Assembly (NCBI RefSeq): GCF_003334255.1
Contig: NZ_QOWU01000143.1
Direction: 5' to 3' (one strand)
DNA from: Escherichia coli
GTDB lineage: Bacteria > Pseudomonadota > Gammaproteobacteria > Enterobacterales > Enterobacteriaceae
DNA length: 1,903 bases
The notes under the pieces are model-generated. The model worked only from the letters and a program-made list of their open reading frames with translations. It had not been told where the DNA came from and searched no databases. Shown here in pieces: positions 1-1,768 of the stretch. A program made the translations under genes and the position numbers. Position 1 is the first letter of the stretch. Each line of letters opens with the position of its first letter.

Positions 1-65
1 AGTTATCGTGAGAGTAATTCATCGGCACGTTAAATCATATCAGGCGTAATACCACAACCCTTAAG

Positions 66-299
66 TTAGCGCTTATGGGACTGCATCCCCCGCGGTCCCT
101 CCATCAGAGCCCGGTATCGACGGTAATCCTCCTCCGTGACACCCCACTGAGCGGCCTGTTGCTGCAGCGCCTGTGTGGTGGTACTGACCTGCGAAGAGGC
201 CTGCGTGCGTGTGCCCTCGGGCGCACTCTCCCGTACAGCAGCCACCGTCTGCAGGGAAATGAGCAGCATGAGCACCGGTGACAGATTCTTCATTTTCAT
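66..299 (-). CDS. Small Sec-secreted protein (77 aa precursor, ~56 aa mature), function unknown
   Basis: ORF 66..299 (-). ATG 299-297 lies 4 nt after the upstream stop (TGA, 306-304); SD GGAG is 7 nt upstream within the previous gene. N-terminus MKMKNLSPVLMLLISLQTVAA|V looks like a Sec signal peptide with an AXA-type cleavage site (VAA). Mature part is Gln/Thr/Ser-rich, then a charged C-terminus (GVTEEDYRRYRALMEG). Short length lowers confidence. Confidence 0.6.
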   Translation of the reverse strand: MKMKNLSPVLMLLISLQTVAAVRESAPEGTRTQASSQVSTTTQALQQQAAQWGVTEEDYRRYRALMEGPRGMQSHKR

Positions 300-303
300 T
301 TCA

Positions 304-1071
304 TCACTCCACCATGACCCGGACCTGACGTCCGTTCACCCGGAACGAGGCTTCTCCCCGTCCGGCACGCTCAAGCATCCAGCCGGCCGTGCTCTCCCCT
401 TCACCCAGCAGCGTCACATCTGAAAGACGGGTAAATCCACGGGGAGCCACCGCAGCATATGTGCGTCCGCCACGCTGCTCCGTGCCTGTCAGCACAAACG
501 GTGCGCTGCGGCTGATAACTGAAATGCCGGAAGAGCCCTTTTTCTGGCGTGGCGTGACCGCCGGTGTGCTCTTCACCGTGCCCGTTCCTTTCGCAGATGA
601 CGGTGATACCGGGGTGAATGGCGCCTTCTCCAGCTTCTCCAGTCGCAGGTCATACGCACGAAGCGTTTCTCCCTGCTGCGCCAGCGTGGCCTGCAGTGAT
701 GCCAGGCTGGCGGCCATCTGACCAGTGCGTGCATGCTCTTCCTCCGTCAGTACAGGTCGTTGCTCCAGCAATGTCAGTCGCTCCGTCACGCTTTTCAGCT
801 GTTTTTTGGTTTCAGCCAGCCGGGACCTGAGCGGTTCAAGCTCACTTCCCGACAACGCGAGAGCATCTGAATACGTTTTCATTTGCCCCTCCAGTGCGGC
901 AATGCGTTCATCCTGCTCCCCGCTGTAACGATAGAGGCCGCAAACCGCCAGAATGGTCGCAACCAGAACGGTCAGTACAAATCCCACGGAAAGCATGGGT
1001 GACACACAGGTCCACCCATCAAGAGGAGATGAATGCACTGACGGTAATGTCTTCTGTTTTTTTTCACTCAT
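304..1071 (-). CDS. Bitopic membrane protein (255 aa): short cytoplasmic N-terminus, one TM helix, long coiled-coil region, Ser/Thr/Pro-rich linker, small C-terminal domain. Family unassigned.
   Basis: ORF 304..1071 (-). Start ATG 1071-1069 overlaps the upstream stop (ATGA); SD GGAG lies 8 nt upstream inside the lipoprotein gene. Lys-rich N-terminus MSEKKQK, then a single hydrophobic segment PMLSVGFVLTVLVATILAVCGLY (about residues 25-47, nt ~931-999). Residues ~52-140 are Leu/Ala/Glu/Lys/Gln-rich with heptad-like spacing, ending in LRLEKLEK. Linker PFTPVSPSSAKGTGTVKSTPAVTPRQKKGSSG, then a ~70-aa C-terminal domain. Confidence 0.8.
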   Translation of the reverse strand: MSEKKQKTLPSVHSSPLDGWTCVSPMLSVGFVLTVLVATILAVCGLYRYSGEQDERIAALEGQMKTYSDALALSGSELEPLRSRLAETKKQLKSVTERLTLLEQRPVLTEEEHARTGQMAASLASLQATLAQQGETLRAYDLRLEKLEKAPFTPVSPSSAKGTGTVKSTPAVTPRQKKGSSGISVISRSAPFVLTGTEQRGGRTYAAVAPRGFTRLSDVTLLGEGESTAGWMLERAGRGEASFRVNGRQVRVMVE

Positions 1072-1646
1072 TTTTTAAGCTCCGCTCCTGCGCCCCTGAC
1101 ACCGGCCGGTACCGGCGCCAGCTGGCCCGGCGGCAACTGATAACCTTCCCGCAGGCTGTGACAGACAACCCGCTGCACATCATCAACTTCAAGTTGCCAC
1201 GCCGGACCGGCCATCATCTGCAGGGCGGTACGCAACCTGAGCGGCCCCGTCTGATACTGCACTGCCGGCAACGCCTGACGATAAAGCACCCCGTTGGCCG
1301 GTCCGGTGGCACAGAGCGTGTAGCCCGACTGTTTCAGGGCATAACGCATCGCATCTGCCACCGTCGGCTTCAGGGATGCCGGAATACGGATGTCAATCAC
1401 CTGGGAAAGGGGATCCCGCTGTACCGCATCCGGATGAGTGTTAACCAGCAGATAGCGGTCATAACGCACCACCTCGGGCACAGTCGTCCCAGCGTACATA
1501 TCAGGGCTGGCCGGACGGACATTATTGCTGACCGTCACCGACGGTACCGGAACAGCCGCATCCCGCTGCAGCAGTTTTTGCTGCCCCTGACAGCCAGTCA
1601 GAAGTACGCAGGCGGACAGCACGGAAAGAAGAAGGGATGTTTTCAT
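1068..1646 (-). CDS. Predicted lipoprotein (192 aa), probably outer-membrane sorted; first gene of a three-gene envelope operon. A conjugation/pilus-associated role (PilL/TraV/VirB7/DotD-like) is hypothesis only.
   Basis: ORF 1068..1646 (-). ATG at 1646-1644 is preceded by SD GAGGT (1656-1660) with 9-nt spacing. N-terminus MKTSLLLSVLSACVLLTG-C has a positive n-region, hydrophobic core and lipobox L-T-G-C with Cys19 (codon 1590-1592); Gln at +2, so no Asp inner-membrane retention signal. Pro/Gly/Ala-rich C-terminal tail (QLPPGQLAPVPAGVRGAGAELKK). Composition is protein-like, unlike the R/H/C-rich antisense frame. Stop TGA overlaps the next start (ATGA at 1068-1071). Confidence 0.8.
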   Translation of the reverse strand: MKTSLLLSVLSACVLLTGCQGQQKLLQRDAAVPVPSVTVSNNVRPASPDMYAGTTVPEVVRYDRYLLVNTHPDAVQRDPLSQVIDIRIPASLKPTVADAMRYALKQSGYTLCATGPANGVLYRQALPAVQYQTGPLRLRTALQMMAGPAWQLEVDDVQRVVCHSLREGYQLPPGQLAPVPAGVRGAGAELKK

Positions 1647-1740
1647 CAGGAAGTTACCTCTGCGGTGAAGTGATAAAGTCAGAGGTCAATTTGCAGAAGA
1701 AGTCCAGACCGGCTCAATGAACAACTGATTTCCGGTTGAC
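1647..1740 (-). promoter_or_regulatory. Promoter and 5' leader region of the lipoprotein operon (exact -35/-10 uncertain)
   Basis: Only non-coding interval between the upstream terminator and the lipoprotein start. Candidate sigma70-like hexamers on the minus strand: TTGAGC (1717-1712), 17-bp spacer, GCAAAT (1694-1689). An alternative -35-like TTGACC sits at 1689-1684 but has no good -10 partner. Matches are weak; the TSS cannot be fixed from sequence. Confidence 0.35.
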
Positions 1741-1768
1741 AAAAAAAACGCCTGCACAAGGCAGGCGT
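1741..1768 (-). terminator. Rho-independent (intrinsic) terminator for the upstream minus-strand gene
   Basis: On minus-strand RNA: GC-rich 7-bp stem (1761-1767 pairs with 1749-1755; GCAGGCG/CGCCUGC), 5-nt loop (1756-1760), then immediately U8 (complement of the A8 run at 1741-1748). The plus-strand side has no downstream U-tract, so it is unidirectional. Confidence 0.6.

Follow-up and report, generated by a model that had tools for sequence, protein, structure and literature searches.

What is controlled by an RNA stem that covers the Shine-Dalgarno (SD) sequence of an operon's first gene, when the upstream arm of that stem lies directly beside promoter-like sequence? The question is raised by a 1,903-nt stretch of the Escherichia coli contig NZ_QOWU01000143.1 (assembly GCF_003334255.1), the whole of which we call the window. 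It carries the beginning of a type IV secretion (mating-pair-formation) operon that belongs to an integrative and conjugative element (ICE) of the PFGI-1/SPI-7/ICEclc class. Every gene in the window lies on the minus strand, and on that strand the leader of the first of them, the lipoprotein gene pilL2, reads ...caaattgACCTCTGactttatcacttcaccgCAGAGGTaacttcctgATG. A preliminary description of the window had proposed that a 7-bp stem in this leader sequesters the SD and gates the whole translationally coupled operon, either as a thermosensor or as an element opened by a small RNA (sRNA) or a protein. We find that the SD of the first gene in the coupled operon is indeed masked and that selection maintains this masking in the leader family. 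The 7-bp stem, however, is confined to one subclade and forms a redundant part of a larger fold-back, which overlaps promoter-like sequence and lies behind a terminator; the 5' arm of the stem is probably absent from the operon's own transcript. The value of the result is thus corrective: the functional unit is not the 7-bp stem.

Masking of the ribosome-binding site in the leader family

The stem itself exists as it was described. Its arms, ACCUCUG (1686-1680) and CAGAGGU (1662-1656), are perfect reverse complements (7/7 Watson-Crick pairs, four of them G-C, with no internal mismatches) separated by a 17-nt loop; the SD, GAGGT (1660-1656), lies inside the 3' arm and 9 nt 5' of the lipoprotein ATG at 1646-1644, and the isolated hairpin folds at -7.9 to -9.0 kcal/mol. 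Because the window contains six perfect 7-bp inverted repeats with loops of 3-30 nt, against 3.8 +/- 2.4 in dinucleotide shuffles, a stem of this kind is not unusual by itself. Of the shuffled leaders, 1.6-2.4% contain a perfect 7-mer that could pair with sequence including part of the SD, and the probability that the SD is unpaired (0.01-0.06) falls in the lowest 3-10% of shuffles; by itself, such masking is modestly unusual, for a feature that was chosen post hoc. The full 118-nt leader folds no better than shuffles (z -0.8), and in its minimum-free-energy (MFE) structure the SD pairs with CUUCUGC, farther upstream, and not with ACCUCUG. The signal-peptide codons at the start of pilL2 (CCCUUCUUCUUUCC, window 1644-1610) are CU-rich and able to pair with the SD.

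Two upstream segments of the leader match the SD. CUUCUGC (1699-1693), which pairs with GCAGAGG (1663-1657), aligns with the UUCCGC of the family and is the homologue of a family-wide pairing; it extends to a 13-bp interrupted helix, formed by 1709-1693 with 1663-1645, that reaches up to the first two bases of the AUG. ACCUCUG (1686-1680) aligns with the CCUGU of the family. When upstream sequence is contained in the RNA (from the window, AR_0089 or SI-NP020), the two pairings differ by no more than 1 kcal/mol, with ensemble shares of 0.42-0.69 for ACCUCUG and 0.27-0.55 for CUUCUGC that sum to about 0.95-1.0; the RNAs compared in this way ended before the ATG, which leaves the comparison unaffected. 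Because both pairings share the ensemble at near-equal energy, the ACCUCUG stem is one half of a redundant anti-SD pair. The anti-SD role originally assigned to it stands to the extent that the SD is predicted to be 94-99% paired when upstream sequence is in the RNA, but that role is shared with CUUCUGC.

A related leader is present in 75 E. coli genomes and falls into several divergence classes, some of which are alike in DNA only across the intergenic part. This intergenic module of about 120 nt is kept despite varying upstream genes (Rpn, an Rpn fragment, a hypothetical gene, DUF433, DUF2442/DUF4160 and IS600). A protein-anchored scan of one genome per species yielded 73 loci, from Serratia, Xenorhabdus, Pantoea, Erwinia, Pectobacterium, Yersinia, Edwardsiella, Proteus, Salmonella, Citrobacter and two Pasteurellaceae, with the start codons of the relatives set by lipobox and N-terminal homology. 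Column pairing was tested in an alignment of 31 leaders, against 500 shuffles and slid-register controls, and pairing energies in 20 clade representatives that are <80% identical. One of the E. coli relatives, NCTC9112, has a 6-nt insertion, TGATGA, before the pilL2 ATG, giving CCTGATGATGATG, and with it alternative in-frame start codons and a longer spacer between SD and AUG.

Covariation of the two arms of the 7-bp stem, which would be expected of a conserved control element, was not found in the alignment: 34.6% of cells are paired, 102 of the 500 shuffles are as good, the slid controls are as high, and the stem is complete only in the four rows belonging to the E. coli subclade. An inner hairpin, in which positions 2-6 of the -10-like hexamer considered below together with the following GA (ACAGUGA) pair with UCACUGU just 5' of the SD, is paired in 82.9% of cells, with none of 500 shuffles as good and slid registers at no more than 44%. 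Xenorhabdus shows G-C to C-G exchanges in this hairpin, and at one locus (L052) the inner pair is wholly different yet complementary (GUUAAC/GUUAAC). The E. coli subclade has CAAATT or CACATT in place of the hexamer CACAGT, and its SD has become AGAGGUAA instead of ACAGGAA; the inner hairpin is degenerate there, with 3/7 pairs in the window. The family consensus also holds a possible CsrA-like site, ACAGGA, that is absent from the window. RNAalifold, applied to the 31-leader alignment, returned the terminator only and no leader consensus. An H-type pseudoknot combining the inner hairpin with a stem of the 7-bp type was considered and rejected, as only 1 nt would have to span a helix of 6-7 bp.

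Because the helices shift register between clades, co-evolution was assessed not from the alignment but from alignment-free energy tests, in which duplex energies of strands taken from the same element are compared with those of strands taken from different elements among the 20 representatives. When the 18-nt segment preceding the hexamer was paired with the ATG and the 20 nt that end the leader, the energies were -11.4 kcal/mol for strands of the same element and -7.7 kcal/mol for strands of different elements (0/20,000 permutations), and an element's own partner was the best one in 8 of 20 rows. The same-element effect was gone when the 5' strand was reversed (-8.8 kcal/mol) or shuffled (-7.5 kcal/mol). 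The strands of the inner hairpin likewise fit best within an element (-5.3 vs. -3.6 kcal/mol; p = 0.0002), and the 12 nt after the hexamer, i.e., the segment corresponding to the 7-bp stem, gave -6.0 vs. -5.1 kcal/mol (p = 0.02). Neither of two controls was significant: the 5' strand against the coding region gave -6.3 vs. -5.6 kcal/mol (p = 0.12), and the -35 region against the ribosome-binding site (RBS) gave -5.9 vs. -5.7 kcal/mol (p = 0.32).

What is conserved, together with the terminator and the promoter-like boxes described below, is a long imperfect hairpin whose 5' strand consists of the promoter spacer, the -10-like box and the next bases, and whose 3' strand consists of the SD, its spacer and the AUG. 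The stretch from 20 nt 5' of the hexamer to the AUG forms one such hairpin in nearly all 20 representatives (mean z against shuffles -2.4; 11 of 20 below -2), with an outer helix, joining the promoter spacer to the SD/spacer/AUG region, whose sequences are clade-specific (Table 1). Opening of the RBS, taken as positions -15 to +5 and computed with or without a 35-nt 5' segment, costs on average 7.0 kcal/mol more (median 4.9) when the segment is the element's own, as against 1.6 kcal/mol more when it is foreign (p = 1e-7); the value for the window with its own segment is +5.2 kcal/mol. In long RNAs, which ran from 70 nt before the hexamer to +33, limits set independently of the hairpin, some 12 of the 18 nucleotides of the RBS are paired family-wide. 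Thirteen of the 20 clades use the promoter spacer/hexamer as partner of the RBS, and six, among them the window, use the 12 nt that follow the hexamer. What survives of the gate once proposed for the coupled operon is an RBS masking that is conserved and co-evolving in the leader family; what does not survive is the 7-bp stem as its functional unit.

Four more distant PilL homologues (37-43% identical) are encoded at five loci (L087-L091) on short metagenomic contigs, two of which are identical. Each of these loci has its own hairpin masking the SD and AUG, and each such hairpin starts at or just past a CAnnnT-like box (e.g., AUGUGUUCUUAC/GUGAGGACACAU in L091). RBS masking may extend well beyond the Enterobacterales, on what is anecdotal evidence from these short contigs.

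Table 1. Features of the pilL2 leader, its surroundings and corresponding elements in relatives (window coordinates unless a locus is named).
Feature	Position	Strand	Remarks
Fold-back 5' strand, GUC.GGA...CUUCUGC	1693..1709	-	Promoter spacer and first base of hexamer; pairing of the MFE structure
Fold-back 3' strand: GCAGAGG (1663-1657), UCC (1651-1649), GAU (1647-1645)	1645..1663	-	Includes SD and first two bases of AUG
5' arm of 7-bp stem, ACCUCUG (anti-SD)	1680..1686	-	2-8 nt past hexamer; pairing probability 0.42-0.69 with upstream sequence in the RNA
17-nt loop of 7-bp stem	1663..1679	-	Holds AUCAC, a vestige of the 3' arm (UCACUG) of the family inner hairpin, degenerate in the E. coli subclade
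Outer helix, Xenorhabdus			GGUUCC(C)UGC / GCAGGAACC
Outer helix, L053			UUAUU(U)CCUGC / GCAGGAAUAA
Outer helix, Mixta			GAAGAGUU / AACUUUUC
Outer helix, Edwardsiella			CGGGGG / CCCCCG
Outer helix, Yersinia			CCGUCAAAAUA / UAUUUUGACGG
Box M1, AGTT-N5-TTGAGC	1712..1726	-	TTGAGC (1717-1712) is -35-like; presumed activator/-35 site
Box M2, -10-like hexamer CAAATT (family CAnAnT)	1688..1693	-	Putative -10 element, from conservation
Predicted start of the operon's own promoter	1679..1681	-	7-9 nt past hexamer; predicted from standard sigma-70 geometry
Intrinsic terminator hairpin, ACGCCUGC-cuugu-GCAGGCGU	1748..1768	-	From terminator scan; conserved ICE backbone module before the pilL2 operon
Terminator U-run (TTTTTTTGTC)	1738..1747	-	T-run conserved in alignment
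pilL2	1646..1068	-	TIGR03748 PilL2 match, 1.4e-37; lipobox LLTGC; DotD/VirB7-like lipoprotein, homologue of iceB7; opens the type IV secretion operon
Second operon gene, coiled-coil membrane protein	304..1071	-	Start overlaps pilL2 stop
TIGR03759 gene, first 77 codons		-	Cut by IS421
RAQPRD and TIGR03757 operon heads	L082 24455-24560 and 13725-13830	-	Intergenic regions read; same sites in L084, L085 and L086

Terminator and promoter-like boxes

Upstream of the fold-back lies an intrinsic terminator, whose hairpin (-14.1 kcal/mol, z -4.1) has an 8-bp stem with six G-C pairs and is followed by T8. Among the 31 leaders, 93.3% of its cells are paired, with none of 500 shuffles as good and slid controls at no more than 54%, and compensatory variation amounts to 27 cells changed on both sides, distributed over four pairs. 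The terminator is genuine, and it travels with the ICE backbone and not with the upstream gene; it would block impinging transcription.

Between the terminator and the SD are two boxes. The core of the first, M1 (A-GTT-N5-TTG, window 1726-1715), is near-invariant in the clade representatives, and the second, M2, has the form G-CAnAnT, with CACAGT, CATAGT, CAAAGT, CAGAAT or CAAAAT in relatives. CAnAnT is found 37-50 nt 5' of the ATG in 66 of 72 leaders, and the TTG lies 16-18 nt 5' of the hexamer in 62 of 70, with variable sequence in the intervening spacer, which is 18 nt long in the window; in the family, on the coding strand, M2 is followed in order by about 10-13 nt, UCACUG, the SD and the ATG. 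An invariant TTG and invariant hexamer positions A2 and T6, held at a fixed spacing, are what a promoter of the sigma-70 family would keep. E. coli JNEC-KY171 carries an IS600 copy right upstream of CATTGAG (~1714-1760), which splits M1 from the promoter-like rest.

If M2 serves as a -10 element, the predicted start falls inside the 3' end of the 5' arm of the 7-bp stem and at most the last two bases of that arm are left in the RNA. Such a start comes close to the case, transcription beginning downstream of 1680, that the preliminary description had named as refuting its stem. Besides the window, Pectobacterium (CCACC), Erwinia (ACCCC) and a RAQPRD leader (ACGCACC) have arms of the same type, all of them situated 2-10 nt past the hexamer. 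Because these arms are too near the hexamer to sit fully in its transcript, the helix would form only in RNAs that come from upstream. A literature search returned no mapped start site for pilL2 or its counterpart iceB7 in any relative. For ICEclc, a BisC peak in chromatin immunoprecipitation suggests an additional transfer-competence promoter, a candidate for control by BisDC, in the region upstream of iceB7, which was noted for an absence of read-through (PMC12409273), and at the corresponding 139-bp intergenic region reverse-transcription PCR (RT-PCR) revealed a break and rapid amplification of 5' cDNA ends (5' RACE) gave no product (PMC2892462).

Two other guides to transcription at this locus were tried and set aside. 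A sigma-54 promoter (GG-N9-GC in two sequences) has a spacing that is one base short and a GG that, by eye, is not conserved, and the 'pilL2' of PAPI-1 concerns a type IVb pilus operon and is not transferable.

Proposed protection from read-through and its alternatives

Because the predicted start cuts the ACCUCUG arm, the best model is a protection of the kind known from IS10 and IS200. We propose, with confidence that is about evenly balanced, that a promoter-embedded fold-back guards the pilL2 operon from read-through translation. The proposal builds on what is observed in the leader family, namely two strands that pair and that co-evolve among clades, a terminator, and boxes that are conserved in sequence as well as in spacing. 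Transcripts that originate in the variable cargo genes and pass the terminator would carry the 5' strand, and such read-through RNA would fold back on the RBS, so that pilL2 would remain untranslated. As the genes downstream would be translationally coupled to pilL2, which is plausible because pilL2 and the next open reading frame (ORF) overlap by ATGA (1071-1068), the whole operon would then stay silent. Transcripts from the operon's own promoter, on the other hand, would start at about 1681-1679, close to the fold-back's apex, and, being without the 5' strand, would be translatable. The function of the boxes as a promoter, the position of the start and the silence of read-through RNA are the parts of this proposal that we infer.

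The arrangement is not confined to pilL2. The RAQPRD and TIGR03757 operons of four E. coli ICE classes begin with the same layout but with inverted repeats that differ from each other and from that of pilL2: AGTT/AATT-N5-CTG is followed after 17 nt by CA(T/C)(G/C)CT (CATGCT/CACGCT), and a repeat joins this region to the SD (e.g., ACGCACC...GGTGCGT-ATG). Their 5' segments add 3.1-10.6 kcal/mol to the cost of RBS opening in 7 of 8 cases. A strict search for the M1-M2 motif in 50 kb of the ICE found pilL2 only, and the other two heads were recognised by reading the intergenic regions. That different sequences preserve the same complementarity favours a helix in RNA over an operator shared by one protein. 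Cargo collects at insertion hot spots directly upstream of these three heads of the type IV secretion system (T4SS) in L001-L008, L082 and L084-L086, often in the same orientation, and includes Rpn nucleases, the DUF2442/DUF4160 pair, DUF433, IS600, IS66, iha, McrBC, type I/II restriction-modification systems, an AraC regulator and toxin-antitoxin-like genes. More tentatively, since here our confidence stays somewhat below an even balance, we suggest that ICEs of the ICEclc/SPI-7/PFGI-1 class build the heads of their T4SS operons as promoter-embedded fold-backs, by which cargo leakage would be silenced at translation, and that this has been repeated at least at pilL2, RAQPRD and TIGR03757.

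Several points weigh against protection from read-through. A strict scan for the sigma-70 consensus finds no promoter in the window, and CAAATT matches TATAAT at three of six positions; together, the poor match and the empty scan suggest that any promoter here is weak and should need an activator. The TTG is missing from the Pantoea/Mixta clade, the distant homologue L088 lacks the 16-18-nt geometry of the two boxes, the hexamer columns of the logo were fixed by the anchoring of the sequences, and -35 and -10 roles are suggested by conservation and spacing only. In an RNA that starts at 1680, pairing with the CU-rich first codons would still occupy about 75% of the SD ensemble. The clade representatives share phylogenetic history, and the fold-back of the window is the weakest of the 20 (-13.4 kcal/mol, z -0.57), in a copy of the ICE that may be decaying, since it is disrupted by IS421. 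A strong terminator just upstream leaves scant read-through to guard against. Finally, microarray data for ICEclc suggested a continuous 14.5-kb transcript over the junction that is 'rapidly processed' (PMC2892462), which fits a hairpin that is present in the main mRNA.

A standing brake on every pilL2 mRNA is the alternative that accommodates this last observation, and we regard it as possible though doubtful. The start would then lie upstream of the 5' strand, or the operon would be read from a long transcript through the terminator, and the fold-back would act as does the hairpin of IS200 tnpA. Co-evolving helices that occlude the RBS do imply an RNA with both strands, several of them have a length suited to RNase III (e.g., 16 + 7 bp in L023, or -32 kcal/mol in L061), and the ICEclc junction combines an RT-PCR break and failed 5' RACE with the array-suggested transcript (PMC2892462). 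IS200 itself couples a terminator with an SD-sequestering stem-loop in its own 5' untranslated region (UTR) (PMC4513863). The brake would be relieved by RNase III or other processing, by a trans-acting protein or sRNA, or by ribosome standby, and CAnAnT would be kept for a reason at the RNA level. A standing brake does not account for the 16-18-nt spacing of TTG and CAnAnT with variable sequence between them, or for the retention of CAnAnT where it is unpaired (L059), and the two-box layout heads three operons of one ICE. Moreover, a strong conserved terminator 30-40 nt upstream argues for a promoter between terminator and gene, and the BisC peak upstream of iceB7 likewise suggests one (PMC12409273).

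It is unlikely that the 7-bp stem is itself the control element, be it an RNA thermometer or a gate on the native mRNA that is opened by an sRNA or a protein. The stem covers the SD exactly and has the higher pairing probability in the upstream-containing RNAs of the window (0.66-0.69); three E. coli ICE classes, 14-24% divergent in this region, have both arms, and the loop tolerates a 6-nt deletion; the change from CCUGU/ACAGG in the family to CCUCUG/CAGAGG suggests that the arms were lengthened together. Similar arms just past the hexamer also dominate in 6 of 20 clades. Yet outside the subclade the pairing is not conserved, its same- vs. mixed-element test is weak, CUUCUGC provides an alternative pairing of equal energy, and an arm at 2-8 nt past the -10-like box is too near to be fully included in its transcript. 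A thermosensor in particular is not indicated, because computed SD pairing hardly varies between 20 and 50 C: the SD is 90-98% paired and GAGGU unpaired at 0.02-0.10 throughout this range in arm-containing RNAs, so that no melting is predicted. An E-value scan of the window against Rfam found no thermometer or other family in the leader, its four weak matches being elsewhere or far below threshold.

Nor do we think it at all likely that the 7-bp repeat is a chance match without a function of its own. Repeats of this length are equally frequent in shuffles, CU tracts are abundant in the leader and pair with any purine-rich SD, and the copy of the ICE in hand is disrupted by IS421. Against this, an exact anti-SD 7-mer is seen in only ~2% of shuffled leaders, the repeat is kept in diverged E. 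coli classes, and RBS masking is under family-wide selection.

Very improbable, finally, is that the dyad acts as DNA, either as an operator for a dimeric repressor or activator over -10/+1 or as a cruciform or single-strand hairpin in conjugative transfer: the complementary sequences vary across clades and across the three operon heads, whereas one protein would need one sequence; G-U pairs are tolerated (ACGCACU/GGUGCGU in SI-NP020 and several outer helices), which fits RNA and not the recognition of duplex DNA; the 3' strand is always the SD/AUG region, which points to translation; and the helix excludes the -35 box, unlike that of Frpo-type single-strand promoters. What can be said for such a role is that the -10-like box and the predicted +1 are both spanned by an inverted repeat, CAGTGA-N9-13-TCACTG, and that the BisC sites of ICEclc carry a weak inverted repeat at a 12-bp distance (PMC12409273).

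The element and its relation to known systems

Over positions 77-1903, the window shows 100% identity with the E. coli STEC2018-553 chromosome. The match lies within an ICE that runs from ParB, dnaB-PI, topoisomerase III, STY4534, ssb and Rpn to pilL2, a hypothetical gene, TIGR03759 and a transglycosylase, and continues through traD and many TIGR037xx conjugation genes. In ICEclc, orf73676 is annotated as conj_PilL/iceB7, a DotD/VirB7-like lipoprotein, and the trio of orf73676, orf73029 and orf72295 (= TIGR03759) opens the type IV secretion region (PMC10018362). Because window positions 1-80 are the end of a copy of IS421 (IS4 family) inserted in the TIGR03759 gene, the first T4SS operon is interrupted in the source genome. 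This IS421 end sequence occurs in 2,188 of 5,426 E. coli genomes; the copy of the ICE in STEC2018-553 is intact and otherwise identical to that of the window.

The opposite strand of the window contains a 259-codon ORF (894-1673, plus strand) that is antisense to pilL2, spans the leader stem and is without annotation support in relatives; it is probably a by-product of G+C-rich coding sequence on the opposite strand. Elsewhere in the E. coli ICE at locus L082 (39280-39655, minus strand), 6-7 tandem units of ~33 bp, each with the palindrome TGTTGGCAGTGCCAACA, are located upstream of a PFL_4669-family gene. The array could be an iteron or a parS/bisS-like loading array, and a ParB-family gene is situated ~5 kb farther upstream. 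In the same ICE (35793-36530, minus strand), upstream of the STY4534 replication gene, are three direct repeats of ~45 nt (ccagccaatgt..cagcagtctgagaggagcgccttcgggtga), each of which ends in a small GC hairpin.

Transfer competence in ICEs of the ICEclc/SPI-7/PFGI-1 class is on in only a few percent of cells, and expression of the secretion apparatus in the wrong cell is costly. Because cargo (adhesin/siderophore genes, restriction systems and IS elements) gathers ahead of the transfer operons, transcription of the cargo is a real threat to the silence of these operons. A terminator combined with a fold-back would explain how the backbone stays silent whatever cargo inserts upstream, and the two together would provide a concrete cause for the RT-PCR break and the failed 5' RACE at the equivalent junction of ICEclc. 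If the proposal is true, a leak-proofing at the level of translation is added to the bistable switch of transfer competence, and reporter fusions or annotations that ignore the leader may misjudge the expression of T4SS operons.

Among known systems, the ROSE and fourU thermometers resemble the pilL2 leader in that an upstream pyrimidine stretch pairs with the SD; unlike in these, there are four G-C pairs without a mismatch here, no opening is predicted between 20 and 50 C, and the 5' arm is probably outside the native mRNA. The iceB7 region of ICEclc shares with the window the order conj_PilL, small membrane protein and TIGR03759 and a place at the head of the T4SS, and it provides evidence for little read-through and for an activator-bound promoter; no leader hairpin or translational control is described upstream of iceB7 in the three ICEclc reports (PMC2892462, PMC10018362, PMC12409273).

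IS200 offers a closer parallel, since its left end has a rho-independent terminator against impinging transcription and an SD-sequestering stem-loop in the tnpA leader (PMC4513863). Both systems present a terminator, a weak promoter (here a putative one) and an SD-sequestering hairpin in the same order, and near-silent expression of a mobile-element gene would be the aim in both. They differ in that the stem-loop of IS200 is inside the native 5' UTR and represses all transcripts, with further layers added by the antisense sRNA art200 and Hfq, whereas in the pilL2 leader the 5' strand overlaps promoter-like boxes.

It is in this overlap that the pilL2 leader comes nearest to IS10 and IS50, for which Davis, Simons and Kleckner in 1985, Krebs and Reznikoff in 1986, and Schulz and Reznikoff in 1991 reportedly described inhibition of read-through transposase transcripts by fold-back. 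There, as is proposed here, a mobile element is said to guard a costly gene from transcription that enters from without: one strand, the 5' one, of a helix occluding the RBS precedes the element's own start and overlaps its promoter (for pilL2, both start and promoter are predicted ones), the 3' strand covers the SD and start codon, as does the helix of 1709-1693 with 1663-1645 in the window, and only externally started RNAs fold back on the SD/AUG. In contrast to IS10 and IS50, the guarded gene is not a transposase but the first of a T4SS operon of ~25 genes in an ICE, an intrinsic terminator stands upstream, the design is found at three operon heads, and there is no sequence relationship. 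So read, the pilL2 leader would be an instance, in an ICE transfer operon, of a protection strategy known from insertion sequences.

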